Source: an uncultured Dehalococcoidia bacterium (lineage in GTDB: Bacteria; Chloroflexota; Dehalococcoidia; Lucifugimonadales; Australimonadaceae). Taken from it: a DNA stretch of 64,000 nt. Shown piece by piece: positions 516 to 54,485 of this stretch; the first letter of the stretch is position 1; every line of letters starts with the position of its first letter. A model generated the notes under the pieces. The model saw only the letters and a list, made by a program, of their open reading frames with translations. It had not been told where the DNA came from and made no database searches. Location of the stretch: positions 1,487,504 to 1,551,503 of the forward strand of contig OY282355.1 in the NCBI GenBank assembly GCA_958295525.1, given 5' to 3'. The position numbers and the translations under genes are program-made.

Positions 516-1841
516 ATGTCCGGCGCTCCCTTCACCTCGCCCTTCATTCCCAACACCGGCGACGACCGCGCCGCGATGCTCGCCGCCGTAGGCGCGGCTT
601 CCGTCGAGGATCTCTTCGCGGACATCCCTGAGGCGTTCCGCCATCCCGGGCTTGGCCTGCCGGCGCCGACGCCGGAGATGGGTCTCCGCGCCGAGATGGA
701 GGCGCTGGCGCAGCGCAACTTTCACGCGGGCGAGCATCCGATATTCCTCGGCGCGGGGGTCTACCGCCATTTCTGCCCCGCCGTCGTCGCCCCGCTCGTC
801 ACGCGCGGCGAGTTCCTGACGTCCTACACGCCCTATCAGCCGGAGGTTTCGCAGGGGACGCTGCAAGGGACGTTCGAATTCCAGACGCTGACGGCGCAAC
901 TCTTCGGAATGGAGGTCTCCAACGCCGGAATGTACGACGGCGCGACGAGTTTGGCGGAGGCCGTGCTGATGGCGTGCCGCGTCACGAAGCGCGCCCGAGC
1001 CGCCGTGCTCGACACCGTCAACCCCAACTACCTCGCCGTGATCCGCGCCTACGCCCAGCCCCACGGAATCGAGGTCTACGAAACCGATCCGGCGGCGCCT
1101 CAACTTCTCCCTGAGACGGCGTGCCTCGTCTCGCAGTACCCCAACTTTTTCGGCTGCTTCGAGGATTCGCAAGCGTTCGCCGACCTCGCGCACGAGCAGG
1201 GCGCGCTTTGCGTTATGTCGTGCGACCCGACGGCGCTCGCGCTGTTCCGTCCCCCGGGCGACTTCGGCGCGGACATCGCCACGGGCGAGGGGCAGGCGCT
1301 TGGCGTCCCTCCCAGTTTCGGCGGGCCTTACGTCGGCATTTTCACTTGCCGACAGGAGCACGTCCGCCAACTCCCGGGGCGCATCGCCGGACGAACCGTC
1401 GACGCGGAGGGGCGCGTCGGCTACGTGCTCACGCTCCAGCCCCGGGAGCAGCACATCCGGCGGGAGCGCGCCACCTCCAACATCTGCACGAGCACGGCGC
1501 TCGTCGCGCTCTGGGCCGCCGTCTACCTCGCGTTGATGGGCAAGCATGGCCTGCGCCGCGTCGCCGAACTTTGCTGGCAGAAGTCCCATTACGCCGCGTC
1601 CCGCATCGCCGATTTGCCCGGCTACTCGCTCCCGCTGACCGGAACGTTCTTTCAGGAGTTCGTCGTCTCCTGCCCTGCGCCGCCGTCCGAGATCGGCGCC
1701 GCGCTGGAGCGAGCCGGCATCATCGGCGGTCTGGACGTGAGCGACCGTTTCCCCAACGGAATGCTGCTCTGCGTGACCGAAACCAACACGCGCGCCGAGA
1801 TAGACCGTCTCGTGGACGCGCTCGCGGAGGCCGCCCGATGA
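516..1841 (+). CDS. gcvPA: glycine dehydrogenase (aminomethyl-transferring) subunit 1
   Basis: 441-aa ORF. N-terminus FIPNTGDDRAAMLAAVGAASVEDLFADIPE is typical of GcvPA. Its stop overlaps the gcvPB start (ATGA at 1838-1841). Confidence 0.93.
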   Translation: MSGAPFTSPFIPNTGDDRAAMLAAVGAASVEDLFADIPEAFRHPGLGLPAPTPEMGLRAEMEALAQRNFHAGEHPIFLGAGVYRHFCPAVVAPLVTRGEFLTSYTPYQPEVSQGTLQGTFEFQTLTAQLFGMEVSNAGMYDGATSLAEAVLMACRVTKRARAAVLDTVNPNYLAVIRAYAQPHGIEVYETDPAAPQLLPETACLVSQYPNFFGCFEDSQAFADLAHEQGALCVMSCDPTALALFRPPGDFGADIATGEGQALGVPPSFGGPYVGIFTCRQEHVRQLPGRIAGRTVDAEGRVGYVLTLQPREQHIRRERATSNICTSTALVALWAAVYLALMGKHGLRRVAELCWQKSHYAASRIADLPGYSLPLTGTFFQEFVVSCPAPPSEIGAALERAGIIGGLDVSDRFPNGMLLCVTETNTRAEIDRLVDALAEAAR

Positions 1842-3319
1842 CGCCGGACGGCGCGCCTCCCCTGCGCGAGGCGGCCCATAACCGCCGCCGGCTGCTGATG
1901 GAGCGCAGCCGCCCCGGGCGCGAGGGCGTAACGCTTCCCGCGTCCGACGCGCCGCCGCAGCCGATGCCCGACGCCGCCATGCTGCGGGACGGCTTGGAAC
2001 TGCCGGAGGTCACCGAGGGCGAGGTCGTCCGCTACTTCACGCATCTCAGTCAGTTGAACTTCTCCGTGGACACGAACTTCTATCCGCTCGGCAGTTGCAC
2101 GATGAAGTACAACCCGAAGGTGAACGAGGCCGTCGCCGCCCTTCCGGGCTTCGCGCTCGCGCACCCCGCCCAGCCGGAGCGGCAGGTTCAGGGCGCGCTG
2201 GAGGCGCTGTTCCGGCTCCAAACCTTCCTGCAGGAAGTGAGCGGCTTGCCAGCCGTGAGCCTCGCTCCGCTCGCGGGGGCGCAAGGAGAACTCGCCGGGG
2301 TTCTCACGCTCCGGGCCGCGCTCGAAGCCCGGGGGGAAGGCCGGCGCCGCAAGATGCTCATCCCCGACACCGCGCACGGCACGAATCCCGCGTCGGCGGC
2401 GATGGCGGGCTTTCAGGTCGTTCACGTCCCGTCCGACTCCGGCGGCGACATAGACCTCGGGGCCGTGCGCGCCGAGGCGGACGGCGACATCGCGGGCGTG
2501 ATGTTCACGCAGCCCACGACGCTCGGCCTCTTCGACCGCAACGCTCTCGAAATGTGCCGCGTCGTCCATGAGGCGGGCGGGCTGGTCTACGCGGACGGCG
2601 CGAATATGAACGCCCTGCTCGGGCGCGCCAAACTCGGACAGATGGGCTTCGACGTCGTCCATATGAACTTGCACAAGACGTTCAGCACGCCCCACGGCGG
2701 AGGCGGCCCCGGCGCGGGTCCGATCTGCGTGAGCGCCGAACTCGCTCCCTTCCTGCCCGGACCCGTCGCCGTTCGTCGGGACGACGGCTCCTACGGCAGC
2801 GAGACGCCGGCGCGGAGCATCGGGCGCGTCGGCGGCGCGCAAGGCAACTTCGGCGTGCTCATCCGCGCCCTCTCCTACATAACGCTCTTGGGCGCGGACG
2901 GCATGCTGGACGTCAGCGGCAACGCCGTTCTCAACGCGAACTACCTTCTCGCCAAACTCCGCCCGCTCTACGATCTGCCTTTCGACCGTCCGGTGATGCA
3001 CGAGGTCGTCTTCTCCGCCCGCAAGCGGCCTGGGGCGACTGCGCTGGACGTCTCCAAACGCTTGCTCGACCACGGCTTCCATGCCCCCACGATGTACTTT
3101 CCGCTCGTCGTCCCCGAGGCGCTGATGATCGAGCCCACCGAAACGGAGTCGAAAGAGACGCTCGACGCTTTCGTGGAAGCGCTCCATCGCATAGACGCGG
3201 AGGCGGCGGCGGACGAATCGTTCCTGCATGGGGCGCCCTATGACGCGCCCGTCTCACGCCTCGACGAGGCGCGCGCGGCGCGCCGCCCCGAACTGCGCTG
3301 GCGCGAGCCTGAGGCGTAG
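1838..3319 (+). CDS. gcvPB: glycine dehydrogenase (aminomethyl-transferring) subunit 2
   Basis: In-frame ATG at 1838 inside the 1121..3319 ORF. Conserved motifs FYPLGSCTMKYNPK and NLHKTFSTPHGGGGPG (PLP-lysine region). The upstream 239 codons are Arg/Pro-rich out-of-frame overlap with gcvPA. Confidence 0.93.
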   Translation: MTPDGAPPLREAAHNRRRLLMERSRPGREGVTLPASDAPPQPMPDAAMLRDGLELPEVTEGEVVRYFTHLSQLNFSVDTNFYPLGSCTMKYNPKVNEAVAALPGFALAHPAQPERQVQGALEALFRLQTFLQEVSGLPAVSLAPLAGAQGELAGVLTLRAALEARGEGRRRKMLIPDTAHGTNPASAAMAGFQVVHVPSDSGGDIDLGAVRAEADGDIAGVMFTQPTTLGLFDRNALEMCRVVHEAGGLVYADGANMNALLGRAKLGQMGFDVVHMNLHKTFSTPHGGGGPGAGPICVSAELAPFLPGPVAVRRDDGSYGSETPARSIGRVGGAQGNFGVLIRALSYITLLGADGMLDVSGNAVLNANYLLAKLRPLYDLPFDRPVMHEVVFSARKRPGATALDVSKRLLDHGFHAPTMYFPLVVPEALMIEPTETESKETLDAFVEALHRIDAEAAADESFLHGAPYDAPVSRLDEARAARRPELRWREPEA

Positions 3320-3327
3320 GGGATGGG

Positions 3328-3395
3328 ATCGGCGCGCAACGCGCCTTCTGGATTCCCGCCTTCGCGGGAGCGGTGGGCAAGGGGATTCCCGCCTG
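3328..3395. repeat. small cluster of palindromic intergenic repeats (GGCGCGCAACGCGCC hairpin plus two ATTCCCGCC cores)
   Basis: TTCCCGCCTTCGCGGGA at about 3353-3369 and GGATTCCCGCC at 3383-3393. Same family as the large arrays elsewhere in the window. Confidence 0.7.
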
Positions 3396-3559
3396 ATTAC
3401 ACCCCCTCTTGTTTGCGCGAAATCCGTCTTACCCTTCAACAACGAGCGAGAGCGATATGAGGAAAGCAAACGCTGTTGAGCGTTGCGCTGATTGACGATA
3501 ACGCCCGGCGAGTGGTAGCGTCTCCCCTCGGTTTGACAGCATTGAACAGGGAGAGTCTG

Positions 3560-5089
3560 ATGAACCATCGCATAGTGCGGAACATGTCGCTCGCGCTGCT
3601 TGCAGCGCTGCTGGGTCTGCTGGCGGCTGCGTGCAGCGGCGCGGACGGCGCTCGCGGCCCCGCAGGCCCGCAAGGCTCCGCAGGCCCCGTCGGACCGGCC
3701 GGCTCGCAAGGCCCGGCAGGCCCTGTCGGCGCCGCAGGCGAGCGCGGCCCGCAAGGCCCCGTTGGCGCCACGGGCGAGCGCGGCCCGCAAGGCCCCGCAG
3801 GCGCAGGCGGCGAAACGGGCGCGTCGGGACTCCCCGGAACGCCGGGATCCCCCGGACAAGACGGCGGCGCGCGAGCGGTTATGCTCACGCAAAACACGTT
3901 TATGGCCAACCGCCCCGTGACTTCCACCGCGGCCTTCACCGGCTTCGGGGCAGGCGAGGAGATCGGCGTGGCGCTCATATCCGAAGATGGAACGCGACTC
4001 GACCTCGGCTCCGTAACCGCCAACGGCGGCGGCATAGCCTCTCTCGACGTCAGCCTCGACAGGCTCGACGCGGGCGTGTACGCCGTCGCCGGAGGCCCGG
4101 CCGCCGCCGCGCTCGTGATCAACCCCGCCCCTCTTCCACCTGCAAACCCCGCCTCCTGCGACGGCGTCTCGCAGCCGCTCACGTTCGGCTTCTACGCCTT
4201 CTTCAAACCGATGAGTTACAGCGCCAACGAGGAAGACCTCGACTCGCCGGGCTTCCGTGAACACCGCGGCTACGAGGCCGACCTCGTGAGCGCGCTGGCG
4301 GCGATGAACGGCGCGAGGCTCTCCTTCGAGCGCTCCCCCATCGCCGAGTGGGACGGCATCTGGCTGCGCTCCGACGGAGAATTCGACGTCGTGGGCGGCG
4401 GCATCACGATCCTGGCGTCCCGCACGCGCGACGCATCCGGCGCCGTCAAAGTCGCCTTCACCAACGGACACGTCGCCTTCCGCCAGTCGCTCCTCACGCG
4501 GATGGACGACGCGGCCCGCTGGCCGACCCACGCCGACCTCTCGAGCAGCGTTCGCGTCGGCGCGCTCGCCGGCACCACGGGCGAAGCCCGCCTGCTGCAG
4601 TTGACCGGCCTCGCCGACGGCGCGGGGACGCTGGCCGCCGGAACCCGCGTCGCCACGCCCTCAGGCGAAGTCGTCGCCGACGGGACTTCGGCCTACGCGA
4701 TCACTGCGGCCTCGGCGTCGCCCGCGCTAGAGGGCAGAACCGCCCTCACGCCGCCGGACGACGGCAAACCCCAAGTGATTTACCTCGGCGACGAACTGGG
4801 AGAAAACGAACTGCTGGACGCGCTCCGCAACGGCGAGATAGACGCCATCGCGCGCGGCGAGATCGGCAACCAGGACGCGGCGCAGGCGTCCAATCGCGAG
4901 TTCGCGGTGACCGCCCTCGACCCGGCCTCCGAATACGGCGGCTTCACGGTCGCGGCCTCGAGGACGGGCTTGCTCGCCTGCCTGAACGACGCCCTCGACT
5001 GGCTGACCGACAACCGGAGCATCGGCTACGCTGAGTGGCTCGCCAACCCCAATGTCTTTATGGAGCGCGCCCGCCGGTGGGGAAGGTAG
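3560..5089 (+). CDS. lipoprotein with collagen-like G-X-Y tract and a C-terminal region resembling a family-3 solute-binding domain
   Basis: ATG at 3560 preceded by GGGAGAG. Signal/lipobox [10 protein letters not shown]. 24 uninterrupted G-X-Y triplets (about 3647-3862). The C-terminal half ([11 protein letters not shown]...[11 protein letters not shown]...[10 protein letters not shown]) resembles periplasmic amino-acid-binding proteins; this domain call is by eye only. Confidence 0.6.
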
Positions 5090-15249: not shown

Positions 15250-15440
15250 CACGTCATTCCCGCGTAGGCGGGAATCCAGAGGCGCGCCCCCGGACGCTGC
15301 GCGCAGCGCATCGTCTCCAAGTCCCCTCACGCGCCACGTCATTCCCGCGCAGGCGGGAACCTACTGGAAGCGCCCCACGCGCATGCGGCTCCCCGCCGGG
15401 GCGCGACGGGGGCGAGATTCCCGCCTACGCGGGCAGGGCG
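15250..15440. repeat. cluster of REP/BIME-like palindromic repeats in a divergent intergenic region
   Basis: Three cores (CGTCATTCCCGCGTAGGCGGGAATCC, CGTCATTCCCGCGCAGGCGGGAACC, and inverted GAGATTCCCGCCTACGCGGGCAGG), plus a GGACGCTGCGCGCAGCGCATCGTCTCC hairpin module. Confidence 0.8.
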
Positions 15441-17233: not shown

Positions 17234-17296
17234 ATTCCCGCCTACGCGGGAATGACGGGGCAAGGGGGCGAGGTTCCCGCCTACGCGGGAATGACG
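17233..17296. repeat. two tandem palindromic repeat units
   Basis: GATTCCCGCCTACGCGGGAATGACGG and GGTTCCCGCCTACGCGGGAATGACGG, separated by 14 nt. Confidence 0.8.
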
Positions 17297-18432: not shown

Positions 18433-19130
18433 GGCGCGTGGCGGCGCGGTAGCCGCCTGCGCGGGGCGCTTCCAGTAGTTCCCGCTTTCGCGGGAATGAC
18501 GTGGCGGTGTGGAGTGACTTGGAGACGGGGCGCTGCGGCGCCCGTCCGGGGGCGAGGTTCCCGCATGCAAGTGGGGGCGCTCCGAGTAGGTTCCTGCTTT
18601 CGCGGGAATGACGGCAAAGGAGGGGCGGGTAATTTGGAGACGGGGCGCGTTGCGCCCGTTCGGCGGCGAGGTTCCCGCCTACGCGGGAATGACGTGGCCA
18701 ACAGGTTCCCCGCGTGCGCGTGAGGACGCTCCCAGTAGGTTCCCGCCTACGCGGGAATAACGTGGCGCGTGGGGTGGTTGGAGACGATGCGTTGCGCGCA
18801 TCGTCCGGCGCTTGCGCGCCGACTGGATTCCCGCCTGCGCGGGAACCTACTGGGGCAGGGGGCGCTGCGCTGCGCGCCGCGTCTGGGGCGAGGTTCCCGC
18901 CTACGCGGGAATGACGGGGCAAGGGGGCGAGGTTCCCGCCTACGCGGGAATGACGGGGCCAGTAGGGGCGGGGATGGCGATGCGCTGCGCGCCCCGTCAA
19001 GGAGTGAGGATTCGCGGCGGCGCGGGAATGACGGAGATGAGGGCGCTTGCGCGCCGACTGGATTCCCGCCTACGCGGGAACGACGATTGCAAGAGGGCGG
19101 GGATTCCCGCCTGCGCAGGGATGACGAGCC
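18433..19130. repeat. largest array of mosaic palindromic repeats (about 12 cores in about 700 bp)
   Basis: Cores (G/A)(G/A)TTCCCGC-N4-GCGGGAA(T/C)GACG with loops CTAC, CTGC or TTTC. They are interleaved with GGAGACG(A/G)(G/T)GCG...CGTCC hairpins and GGCGCTTGCGCGCCGACTG modules. Confidence 0.85.
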
Positions 19131-37019: not shown

Positions 37020-37585
37020 CGCCCTTCCCTCGCCCCCTGCCCCGTCATTCCCGCGTAGGCGGGAATCTCGCCCCCTGGCGGGAGCGCATCGCATCGCCCT
37101 TCCCGCCCCTTGCCGTCATTCCCGCGTAGGCGGGAATCCAGTCGGCGCGCAGCGCCCCCCTGCCCCGTCATTCCCGCGTAGGCGGGAACCTCGTCCCCTG
37201 ACGTGGCGCGTAGCGCAATCGCCCTGCCCGCCCACCTCATCGTCATTCCCGCGTAGGCGGGAATCTCGCTCCCCTGATGGGAGCGCATCGCATCGCCCTT
37301 CCCGCGCCCCCACCTTGTCGTCATTCCCGCGTAGGCGGGAATCCAGTCGGCGCGCAAGCGCCGGACGGGGCCGCAACGCGCCCCGTCTCCAAAGCGCCCC
37401 ACCCGCCACGTCATTCCTGCGAAAGCAGGAACCTACTGGTGCAATCGTCATTCCCGCGTAGGCGGGAACCTCGCCCCTGGCGGGAGCGCGTCGCATCGCC
37501 CTTCCCGCGTCCCCCTTGCCGTCATTCCCGCCCACCTCATCGCCCTGCCCGCCTACGCGGGAACCCAGGCGGCGCGCCGCCCCGA
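37020..37585. repeat. array of about 9 palindromic repeat cores, opposite orientation to the 18.4-19.1 kb array
   Basis: CGTCATTCCCGCGTAGGCGGGAA(T/C)C units at about 40-80 bp spacing, with GGACGGGGCCGCAACGCGCCCCGTCTCC and CAGTCGGCGCGCA(A)GCGCC modules. Lies between divergent genes. Confidence 0.85.
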
Positions 37586-40222: not shown

Positions 40223-40343
40223 ATGCCTGGCAGTGACCTATTTTCCCAGCAAGTCGCCCTGCCAGTATCGTCGGCGCTGGAACGTTTCACTTCCGTGTTC
40301 GGGATGGGAACGGGTGGGGCCGCTCCGCTCCAACCACCAGGCA
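40223..40343 (-). rRNA. rrf: 5S ribosomal RNA
   Basis: The minus-strand sequence TGCCTGGTGG...CCCACCCGTTCCCATCCCGAACACGGAAGTGAAACG...GCGCCGACGATACTGGCAGGG...CACTGCCAGGCAT aligns along its length with the E. coli 5S pattern (CCGAAC..GAAGTGAAAC, terminal helix TGCCTGG/CCAGGCA). About 121 nt. Confidence 0.88.
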
Positions 40344-44904: not shown

Positions 44905-45206
44905 GGGCGGGGTTCCCGCTTTCGCGGGAATGACGTGGCGCGTGGGGTGGTTTGGAGACGAGGCGCGTTGCGCCTCGTCCGTGCGAGGGGCGAGATTCCC
45001 GCCTGCGCGGGAATGACGGGGCCAGTAGGTTCCTGCTTTCGCAGGAATGACGTGGCGTGTGGGGCGCTTTGGAGACGATGCGCTACGCGCCTCGTCCGGC
45101 GCTTGCGCGCCGACTGGATTCCCGCCTACGCGGGAATGACGGAATTGGGGGGCGGATCGCGCCTGCGCGGGAACGACGGGACAGGGGGCAGGGTTCCCGC
45201 CTACGC
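44905..45206. repeat. array of about 6-7 mosaic palindromic repeats between convergent genes
   Basis: GGTTCCCGCTTTCGCGGGAATGACG, GGAGACGAGGCGCGTTGCGCCTCGTCC, GATTCCCGCCTGCGCGGGAATGACG, GGTTCCTGCTTTCGCAGGAATGACG and others. The last, truncated copy overlaps the mgtE stop codon. Confidence 0.85.
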
Positions 45207-49779: not shown

Positions 49780-49975
49780 CGGGATGCGCTGCGCGCTGCG
49801 TGCGGGGGCGAGGTTCCCGCCTGCGCGTGAACGACGGAGATGGGGGGGGGGACGGCGGCGGCAGGGGCGAGATTCCCGCCTACGCGGGAATGACGGAGAT
49901 GGGGGGCGGGAACGGCACCGTCAGGGGGCGAGGTTCCCGCCTACGCGGGAATGACGATGGAGTGCGGGAACGACG
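49780..49975. repeat. cluster of three palindromic repeat cores
   Basis: GGTTCCCGCCTGCGCGTGAACGACGG, GATTCCCGCCTACGCGGGAATGACGG and GGTTCCCGCCTACGCGGGAATGACG at about 60-bp spacing. Confidence 0.8.
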
Positions 49976-49993: not shown

Positions 49994-50821
49994 CTAGACC
50001 TCCAGCGGCGTGTCGTCGCGGTTCGCCCATTCGCCCATCGAGCCGTCGTACATCCGAACGGACGGATGGCCGATGAGCGTGAGCGCGAGCGTTGCGTGCG
50101 CCGCACGCACCCCGCCCTGTCAGTAGACGTGCACTTGCTTCTCCGGCGCGATGCCGAGCCCGCGCGCGATTTCCTCGATCTCCTCGCGCGGCTTGAACGT
50201 TCCGTCCTCGGCGACGAGCGCTGTCCACTCCAAGTGGCGCGCGCCCGGCACGCGGCCGACGCGGGCGTTGCCCCGCGAGTTCGCTCCCGTGTGCTCGTCG
50301 AGCGAGCGCACGTCCCAGATCACGGCGCCGGGGTCGCCAATCGCCGCCCGCAGCGACTCGACGTCGGACGCGATAGCGCGATTCGGAGGCTTCGGCGTGA
50401 AGGCCGCGCCCCCGCCGGAGACGGACGGCGGCCCAGCCGCGACCGGCCTGTCCTCGGCGGCCCACTTCCGCCATCCGCCGTTCAGCACGCGGACATCGGC
50501 GTGGCCGTAGTACGTCAGAACCCACCAGAGGCGCGCCGCGTCGCGGCTGTTGAAGCGGTCGTAGCCGACGACGAGCGCATCGTCGCCGATTCCGACGGAC
50601 TCGAACCACGCCTTCGCCTCGTCGGGCGGGGCGACGAGCCTGGGGTTGGCGGAGCCTTTGATCTGCCAGGTGGGGGAGAGCGCGGCGCCCGGGATATGGC
50701 CGGACTCGAAGGCGGCGCCGTCCTGCGCCATTTCGATCACGCGCAGGTTGGGGTCGCCCAAATGCTCCGCGAGCCAGTCCGTCTCGACGAGCAAGTCAGT
50801 TCGGGGGTAGCCGCTCATCAC
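49994..50821 (-). CDS. tandem-rhodanese sulfurtransferase with in-frame TGA at the catalytic cysteine position (candidate selenoprotein; alternatively a nonsense pseudogene)
   Basis: Track ORF 50120..50821 (rhodanese: WLAEHLGDPNLRVIE..., GHIPGA, LNGGWRKW) ends at TGA 50122-50120. The frame stays open for 41 more codons: QGGVRAAHATLALTLIGHPSVRMYDGSMGEWANRDDTPLEV-TAG (49996-49994). The total of 275 codons is typical for this family. Confidence 0.6.
50093..50109 (-). promoter_or_regulatory. 17-nt hairpin 10 nt downstream of the in-frame UGA (SECIS-like position)
   Basis: The mRNA reads UGA-CAGGGCGGGG-UGCGUGC-GGC-GCACGCA: a perfect 7-bp stem with a 3-nt G-containing loop. Confidence 0.35.
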
Positions 50822-50900
50822 GCGCCTCCTCTTCCTATGGAACGCCTCGCCGGAGGTTACAAGCCCTGCGGGGGCGGCGGCAACCTTTCACGCCCTCCGC

Positions 50901-52371: not shown

Positions 52372-52557
52372 TCGTTCCCGCCCCCTGCCCCGTCATTCCC
52401 GCGTAGGCGGGAACCTCGCCCCCGCTCCGTCATTCCCGCGAAGCAGGAACCTATTGGCCCCGTCATTCCCGCGTAGGCGGGAATCTCGCCCCCTGCTCCG
52501 TCATTCCTGCGAAGCAGGAACCTCCCACCCCGTCATTCCCGCGCAGGCGGGAACCCG
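52372..52557. repeat. array of five palindromic repeat cores at about 35-bp spacing
   Basis: CGTCATTCCCGCGTAGGCGGGAACC, CGTCATTCCCGCGAAGCAGGAACC, CGTCATTCCCGCGTAGGCGGGAATC, CGTCATTCCTGCGAAGCAGGAACC, CGTCATTCCCGCGCAGGCGGGAACC. Confidence 0.85.
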
Positions 52558-54221: not shown

Positions 54222-54485
54222 CCTGTCCTGTCATTCCCGTAGGTGGGAATCTCGCCCCCTGTCCCGTCATTCCCGCGTAGGCGGGAATCCAGCGGCGCGC
54301 CAGCGCCGGACGAGGCGCGTAGCGCCTCGTCTCCAAATTCACCCCAGGCGCCACGTCATTCCCGCGAAAGCGGGAACCTACTGCCGCGCCCCTGCGAAAG
54401 CGGGATCCTACCGGATAACGCCATTCCTCCCATCGCCGTCCCCGCCCCCCATCGTCATTCCCGCGTAGGCGGGAATCTCGCCCCC
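54222..54485. repeat. array of about five palindromic repeat cores between convergent genes
   Basis: TGTCATTCCCGTAGGTGGGAATC, CGTCATTCCCGCGTAGGCGGGAATCC, GGACGAGGCGCGTAGCGCCTCGTCTCC, CGTCATTCCCGCGAAAGCGGGAACC, CGTCATTCCCGCGTAGGCGGGAATC. Confidence 0.85.

Follow-up and report, generated by a model that had tools for sequence, protein, structure and literature searches.

A 'Rhodanese-related sulfurtransferase' (COG2897) was described as a new predicted selenoprotein family in the Sargasso Sea study by Zhang, Fomenko & Gladyshev (2005), where a selenocysteine insertion sequence (SECIS) was drawn for AACY01016424 (PMC1088965). Rhodanese-related and COG2897 sulfurtransferase selenoproteins were listed in the 2008 analysis of the Global Ocean Sampling (GOS) data (PMC2398784), and the family of rhodaneses with selenocysteine (Sec) is listed in a 2026 review (PMC13188914); a first-pass annotation of the locus studied here had correctly stated that such predictions existed. 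This locus is a two-domain rhodanese gene on the minus strand of a 64,000-nucleotide (nt) stretch of DNA (hereafter the window) from an uncultured Dehalococcoidia bacterium (GenBank assembly GCA_958295525.1, contig OY282355.1, positions 1,487,504 to 1,551,503), in which the position of the catalytic cysteine is taken by an in-frame TGA followed by a hairpin. The analysis presented below leads us to propose, with a probability of roughly 0.9, that this UGA is decoded as Sec by SelB and Sec-tRNA(Sec) acting at the hairpin, giving a rhodanese with a selenolate nucleophile.

Compared by domain, motif and SECIS definition (and not by the sequences of the representatives), the window gene shows no difference in kind from the Sargasso Sea COG2897 family ('form 4'). 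The two have in common PF00581 domains, Sec (predicted in the window gene) for the catalytic Cys, a UxxG motif (U-Q-G-G in the window gene), a stem-loop directly after the UGA whose loop contains a G, and a marine uncultured source. Because the U-Q-G-G motif fits the published definition, the window gene is, on its predicted features, to be counted as a member of a known, computationally predicted selenoprotein family; with the family and the mechanism already known, the finding adds no system of a new type. Neither of the published representatives, AACY01016424 and MCY3690685.1, was listed in a cluster look-up of 10 relatives. What our analysis adds is support for the SECIS from covariation and codon usage, the taxonomic spread of the family (Dehalococcoidia/SAR202, Ca. 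Binatia and others), and the finding that Sec outnumbers Cys in the present subfamily.

The stem-loop can be compared with the SECIS of Escherichia coli fdhF, the minimal form of which (Liu et al. 1998) is said to span 17 nt and to lie 11 nt after the UGA. Both systems have a UGA inside the coding sequence (CDS), a stem-loop core 11 nt downstream of it, G(G/U) in a small apical loop, and an element that is itself translated. On the other hand, the stem sequence is unrelated, the loop has 3 nt here (5 nt if the closing C-G pair opens), the main type of hairpin is devoid of a bulged U (one is present in two of the related loci, L080 and L081, see below), and the conserved lower helix is unsupported here.

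The Cys-type two-domain rhodaneses (1uar, 3hzu, A. vinelandii RhdA 1e0c and E. coli SseA 1urh) are collinear with the window gene product, share its tandem domains and use the same catalytic column, but have Cys where the window gene has a predicted Sec in the loop U-Q-G-G-V-R. The COG0607 single-domain forms 1-3, NF041203 (rhodanese_LYCAU 'CxU') and the TsoB rhodanese/DsbD fusion resemble it in the rhodanese fold and in having Sec at or near the active site, but are of other architecture and carry other motifs. The match of NF041203 to the window rhodanese lies in the N-terminal domain and scores 31.9 bits vs a cut-off of 115.

An in-frame TGA at the catalytic position

The open reading frame (ORF) called at this locus (50821..50120, minus strand) stops at TGA 50122-50120, beyond which 41 further in-frame sense codons lead to TAG 49996-49994. 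The first-pass annotation had reported this TGA, the 41-codon tail, its TAG and a hairpin at 50109-50093, 10 nt downstream, and had read the gene as a candidate selenoprotein with the TGA at the active-site Cys. All of these coordinates hold. For its ORF at 50120..50821 the frame also stands, whereas the start probably needs a small correction: a GGAGG is suitably spaced upstream of ATG 50818 and the homologues of the window rhodanese begin MSGY..., which makes this ATG a more likely start than GTG 50821. The product from the ATG would be a two-domain rhodanese-type sulfurtransferase of 274 amino acids (aa), with Sec at residue 233. The features of the gene are as follows.

49994..50818, minus strand: complete CDS of the proposed Sec-rhodanese, by translation (ATG 50818-50816, Sec-UGA 50122-50120, TAG 49996-49994)
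50825..50829, minus strand: Shine-Dalgarno-like GGAGG, 6 nt 5' of ATG 50818, read from the sequence, putative function
50821, minus strand: alternative start GTG
50021..50362, minus strand: C-terminal catalytic rhodanese domain, residues 154-267 (GTG-start numbering), profile positions 2-101 of 102 (Pfam)
50120..50122, minus strand: in-frame TGA at the catalytic-Cys column, motif Y-U-Q-G-G-V-R (UxxG)
49997..50119, minus strand: post-UGA tail of 41 codons, reading QGGVRAAHATLALTLIGHPSVRMYDGSMGEWANRDDTPLEV (QGGVRAAH...YDGSMGEWANRDDTPLEV)
Predicted peptides: MYDGSMGEWANR, derived from the tail, and QVHVY-U-QGGVR, across the recoded site

The read-through product contains two PF00581 stretches, that is, tandem rhodanese domains (Pfam, E=5e-30), and is collinear over its full length with solved two-domain rhodaneses (phmmer, E 3.7e-47 to 2.4e-33). 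The match of the catalytic domain (154-267) crosses the TGA into the tail, and the annotated 233-aa ORF therefore lacks the active-site loop together with the last third of the catalytic domain. The TGA column coincides with the catalytic Cys of T. thermophilus 1uar (phmmer, E=3.7e-47; ...vhvy-[TGA]-QGGVRAAH in the window vs ...ivvyCRIAERSSH in 1uar), and likewise with that of M. tuberculosis SseA (3hzu), which bears out the placement proposed in the first-pass annotation. The UGA (Sec) thus takes the place of the Cys that opens the active-site loop of six residues, here U-Q-G-G-V-R.

The subclass loop motifs of rhodaneses are CRxGx[R/T] in thiosulfate sulfurtransferases (TST) and CG[S/T]GVT in 3-mercaptopyruvate sulfurtransferases (MST), and U-Q-G-G-V-R agrees exactly with neither. 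The best matches of the window rhodanese are 3-mercaptopyruvate sulfurtransferase and solved SseA-type rhodaneses. Every NCBIfam match falls under its cut-off (for PRK11493, 3-MST, 125 bits vs a cut-off of 250). The gene product is very probably a Sec-containing sulfurtransferase of the thiosulfate/3-mercaptopyruvate type, of the COG2897/SseA kind.

The GC content at third codon positions (GC3) of the window rhodanese is 0.90 on the 5' side of the TGA and 0.88 on its 3' side. As TGA terminates about nine other coding-like window ORFs, it is an ordinary stop codon here, in line with the first-pass annotation. Two scans of the 64-kb window yielded no second coding-like in-frame TGA and no further selenoprotein gene.

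Conservation of the TGA and of the downstream frame

Among the ~100 closest protein homologues, which range from 92% to 52% identity, nearly all are database entries of 230-238 aa that cover 84-85% of the query and break off at one and the same residue; homologues of full length (275-289 aa) turn up at 45-54% identity. Orthologue DNA was taken from seven places and from 80 loci of one-genome-per-species bacterial genomes (L numbers in the text designate related loci). The catalytic column reads TGA in 62 of these 80 species-level loci and TGC or TGT in the remaining 18, so that the predicted Sec predominates over Cys at the active site of this rhodanese subfamily.

The 62 TGA loci range from 38 to 92% protein identity to the window rhodanese, and an additional in-frame stop or frameshift was found in none of them. 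The tail is kept in all 62 (40-45 codons, QGG[VI]RAAH...YD[GA]S...EW[AG]N..., with the stop at a similar position). Over tail codons 11-39, the proportion of nonsynonymous differences from the window (pN) is far below that of synonymous ones (pS) by the Nei-Gojobori method, with pN/pS values of 0.053/0.496 for L011, 0.09/0.49 for L024, 0.12/0.53 for L039 and 0.20/0.80 for L038. The tail after the UGA is therefore under purifying selection. The residue at the catalytic column in orthologues, selection on the downstream codons and the presence of further disruptions had all been named in the first-pass annotation as ways of checking its proposal, and each of them came out in favor of a selenoprotein.

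Carriers of the TGA form are mostly metagenome-assembled genomes (MAGs) of Dehalococcoidia/SAR202/Chloroflexota, many of them from sponges and sea water; the others comprise seven Ca. Binatia, two sponge 'Deltaproteobacteria' MAGs, one member of Anaerolineae and one of Acidobacteria. The closest genome is a Dehalococcoidia MAG chromosome (OZ251500.1; 92% protein identity). In a rough neighbor-joining tree, the Cys form L043 and the Cys-form group L054/56/59/64/67 are nested within the Sec clade, which points to repeated Sec/Cys switches.

A conserved hairpin over the active-site codons

The hairpin downstream of the TGA consists of the following elements.

50093..50109, minus strand: bacterial SECIS (bSECIS)-type hairpin UGCGUGC-GGC-GCACGCA, 7 bp, beginning 10 nt after the UGA
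50094..50108, minus strand: invariant 6-bp hairpin core, beginning exactly 11 nt after the UGA

It overlaps the active-site-loop codons V-R-A-A-H-A. The window, with its 68% GC, holds about one perfect 7-bp hairpin with a loop of 3-5 nt per kb, and 0.7% of all window TGA trinucleotides carry such a hairpin starting 8-14 nt downstream. Since a hairpin in a lone sequence is thus unremarkable, and a single fold uninformative in GC-rich DNA, the case rests on conservation and covariation across species.

Of the 63 TGA sequences (the window and the 62 loci), 61 form the same hairpin within 18 nt spanning codons +4 to +9, and no common structure exists at this site among 13 Cys forms. Its conservation among TGA-containing orthologues was another check named in the first-pass annotation. 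Folding gives -8.0 to -10.2 kcal/mol for the hairpin-type Sec forms, as opposed to -0.2 to -6.6 kcal/mol for the 13 Cys forms. Five stem pairs never vary among the 53 distinct sequences, while alignment columns 15/29 hold C-G in 26 sequences, G-C in 26 and A-U in one, with no unpaired case. In the true register 94.9% of cells are paired, vs 14-75% with the 3' arm slid, and RNAalifold yields exactly the same helix.

Codon usage adds to this evidence. The Arg codon within the stem is CGT in all 61 hairpin-type Sec forms and in none of the 13 Cys forms, which have CGC, CGG or CGA. CGT is otherwise rare, accounting for 4.8% of window Arg codons and for a single one of the 21 Arg codons of the window rhodanese; a rare codon that is fixed in the Sec forms and needed by the stem argues for conservation at the RNA level. 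Synonymous divergence is likewise lowered just downstream of the TGA, with a mean pS of 0.34 in codons 1-10, vs 0.57 elsewhere.

In the covarying pair, base 3 of codon +4 faces base 2 of codon +9, and the amino acids at these two positions are therefore coupled, as Val(GUG)-Ala(GCx), Val(GUC)-Gly, Ile(AUC)-Gly(GGx) and Ile(AUA)-Val(GUA). The combination Ile-Ala, which is not pairable, is the commonest one in the Cys forms (4 of 10) and is absent from the Sec forms, which speaks against a purely protein-level explanation. Compensation of side-chain volume was also considered as the main cause of the Val/Ala-Ile/Gly coupling and rejected: the combinations Val/Gly (L040, L044, L046) and Ile/Val (L074) keep the pair and not the volume, and the distribution of Ile/Ala is likewise contrary to it. 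With the SECIS lying over active-site codons, RNA pairing would dictate which pairs of loop residues are permitted (Val/Ala, Ile/Gly or Ile/Val). If so, an RNA element would here shape the active site of an enzyme, and to a measurable extent.

The published bSECIS model calls for a loop of 3-9 nt, an upper stem of 4-16 bp, a G in the first two loop positions, a UGA-to-loop distance of 16-37 nt and a minimum free energy (MFE) of -7.5 kcal/mol or lower (PMC13188914). The hairpin described here agrees with this model in its GGC or GUC loop, a stem of 6-7 bp, a G at the loop start, a UGA-to-loop distance of 17 nt and the folding energies given above; its loop can alternatively be read as C-GGC-G, which matches N1-G-[G|U]-N-N2. 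For the main type, a further helix below the hairpin (columns 6-10 paired with 32-36) was examined and rejected, as only 77.7% of its cells pair, mostly as G-U.

The two TGA forms without the main hairpin, L080 (Anaerolineae, 3709-3768) and L081 (Acidobacteria, 3688-3747), have instead a long fdhF-like stem that starts from the UGA, with a GGU apical loop, a bulged U and an energy of -20 to -25 kcal/mol. Their active-site loops read U-Q-T-G-Q-R and U-Q-G-G-G-R, respectively. This suggests a second SECIS design at the same site, by independent origin or by replacement of the element. The main type, as a clean SECIS supported by covariation, could seed a search model.

Sec machinery and other candidate selenoproteins in the lineage

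Over ~700 kb of related loci, a search for selA, selB and selD (tblastn with E. coli queries) returned a single selB, in the Chloroflexota MAG locus L055. This gene (about 1003-2856, minus strand) is complete, encoding 622 aa with all SelB winged-helix Pfam domains, and is divergent from a Cys-type rhodanese homologue (3001-3843, plus strand). With the L055 SelB as a query, only full-length SelB-domain proteins were among the matches listed, all the named ones being from Chloroflexota, a phylum in which SelB is common. A conserved synteny of selB and rhodanese was considered and rejected, as no rhodanese adjoins selB in L088 or L089. Similarly, the AIRS-domain gene that adjoins selB in L088 was rejected as a candidate selD, being devoid of the Cys/Sec-Lys N-terminal motif of SelD.

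Two further gene families with an in-frame TGA occur near the rhodanese with the predicted Sec (rhodanese-U) in related genomes. In L003 (3671-4849, TGA 4139-4141) and L004 (3866-5044), a gene of the PrdB/GrdB family (TIGR04483, E=4.5e-45, below cut-off) has a TGA within the motif T-U-P-N-C (UxxC), followed by the hairpin GCACAC-GGUCA-GUGUGC starting 11 nt after the UGA. The gene calls split it into two ORFs (156 and 227 aa). It comes after an RF-1-domain (ArfB-like) gene, ~6 kb from rhodanese-U on the same 711-kb Dehalococcoidia contig, where rhodanese-U is 78% identical to that of the window. In the Dehalococcoidia MAG locus L051, a UGSC-family gene (about 5032-4490, minus strand; NF041046, E=1.4e-29) has its TGA (4741-4739) in D-U-G-A-C, followed by a hairpin with a GGUCU loop, ~0.9 kb from rhodanese-U.

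Dehalococcoidia MAGs with 46-49 selenoprotein genes are recorded in BSepDB (PMC13326102), and SelA and SelB are enriched in sponge-symbiont bins, co-occurring in most of them (PMC5649159). The picture of marine Dehalococcoidia as selenoprotein-rich organisms gains support from the rhodanese described here. As a side observation on the stop codons of the window, crude GC3-based calls gave 38 ORFs, of which 23 end in TAG, 10 in TGA and 5 in TAA. Such an apparent dominance of TAG is unusual at 68% GC, where TGA normally dominates, and might reflect heavy UGA recoding in selenoprotein-rich Dehalococcoidia.

Proposed decoding and catalysis, and alternative readings

By analogy with E. coli fdhF, the hairpin at 50109-50093 would be bound by SelB carrying Sec-tRNA(Sec) when UGA 50122-50120 is in the ribosomal A site. 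Sec would then be inserted in place of termination, and the 41 codons to TAG 49994 would be translated. From what is established for rhodaneses in general, the selenolate would be expected to attack a sulfane sulfur donor, forming a Se-S(H) intermediate from which the sulfur would be passed to an acceptor. The lower pKa and higher nucleophilicity of the selenolate may render the catalysis faster or more resistant to oxidation than that of the Cys form. The sequence comparisons show that TGA corresponds to Cys, that the downstream frame is conserved and that the hairpin is conserved and covaries. That SelB binds, which residue is inserted and what follows for catalysis we infer from the E. coli paradigm and from the enzymology of rhodaneses.

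Several observations weigh against this proposal. The 2026 review lists the family outside the experimentally verified group (PMC13188914). When the 66-nt region of the window is folded on its own, the MFE structure is another one, in which the hairpin is unused, and it is not more stable than shuffled sequences (z = -1.16). Most of the stem pairs are invariant and lie over a conserved active-site loop, and for this reason only one pair represents true covariation. As for the machinery, ARAGORN found no tRNA genes in the 64-kb window (hence no tRNA-Sec there) and no tRNA-Sec in the sequences flanking 60 related loci; the E. coli queries mentioned above detected no homologue of SelA, SelB or SelD in the window.

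The last of these observations leave some room for a read-through of the UGA with a standard residue, which could be Cys, delivered by a SelB/tRNA(Sec)-like system, or Trp or Gly, inserted by a near-cognate tRNA, with the hairpin as a general stimulator of read-through. The inserted residue is indeed deduced from sequence only, and the Sec machinery is lacking within the window as well as, for tRNA-Sec, around the 60 loci scanned. On the other hand, the codon alternates solely with Cys in the homologues; the hairpin conforms to the constraints of SelB-type bSECIS elements, including the loop G and the spacing; related genomes have, close to the rhodanese, members of families in which Sec positions are known (PrdB/GrdB UxxC, UGSC); and SelB is common in the phylum. 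We consider such a standard-residue read-through improbable.

Even less credible is a pseudogene, or a truly truncated protein of 232 aa, in which the TGA would act as a terminator and the tail would be a decaying remnant. This would be in keeping with the gene callers and GenBank, which give proteins of 231-238 aa named 'sulfurtransferase' or 'rhodanese-like domain-containing protein'. However, as many as 62 species-level genomes keep the TGA with no second stop or frameshift and with a tail that is under purifying selection, and the short product would be left with neither the catalytic residue nor a third of its catalytic domain. Conservation of the TGA in orthologues, combined with selection on the tail, excludes both pseudogene decay and an assembly error. 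A sequencing or assembly error turning TGC or TGT into TGA in the window, for which a one-base difference would suffice, is the least probable reading of all, given that the same TGA recurs in assemblies made independently by many projects (short-read and long-read; ENA, NCBI, JGI, Logan) and that the hairpin-specific codon choices occur solely alongside TGA.

With decoding of the UGA as Sec thus preferred, the present state of the public records has a practical consequence. The truncated ORFs remain in them as 'sulfurtransferase' and the like, and since these ORFs are listed at 231-238 aa and no NCBIfam model reaches its cut-off, the clade is recorded without the catalytic residue and the last third of the catalytic domain. 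The enzymes so affected are those of abundant marine and sponge-associated Chloroflexota, of Ca. Binatia and of others.

As to physiological function, the Sec-rhodanese of selenoprotein-rich marine Dehalococcoidia could conceivably go beyond a faster sulfurtransferase and act as a dedicated chalcogen carrier, with Se-Se or Se-S adducts that feed selenium (or sulfur) to the synthesis of selenophosphate or cofactors. We regard this role as doubtful; if true, it would make the enzyme a selenoprotein that serves selenium metabolism itself.

Genomic context and repeats

The window neighbors of the rhodanese, holA, a gene for a DnaJ/trypsin-domain protein and an arylsulfotransferase gene, offer no functional hint. 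In relatives, the gene order is MFS transporter(s) (SBP_bac_5 in L003/L004), rhodanese-U, SIMPL (PF04402), signal peptidase S26 and tRNA-Lys(UUU). This conserved order is seen in L001, in L003-L007 and in ~30 of L008-L039 (Dehalococcoidia/SAR202), at a distance of some 1.7-3.0 kb on the downstream side of the rhodanese gene (for L001 and L003-L007, 2.3-2.7 kb). The tRNA-Lys is lacking beside the rhodanese of the window, where the gene lies between holA and the DnaJ/trypsin-domain gene, and beside those of its two closest relatives, L008 and L009. The single Rfam match in the window is a stand-alone 5S rRNA (40225-40341, minus strand; RF00001, 92 bits).

A palindrome resembling repetitive extragenic palindromic (REP) elements, TTCCCGC-N4-GCGGGAA, occurs in 35 copies (with at most one mismatch) in the 64 kb, vs 0.05 expected. 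The copies form tandem clusters in intergenic gaps, three of them just 3' of the rhodanese stop. The clusters include the following.

15257-15435: REP-like cluster
17235-17291: REP-like cluster
18479-19080: REP-like cluster
37048-37563: REP-like cluster
44913-45136: REP-like cluster
49814-49951: REP-like cluster
52396-52553: REP-like cluster
54270-54475: REP-like cluster, with others elsewhere

Spurious ORFs running over the REP-like copies read ...SRLRGNDG... and ...IPAYAGMT....

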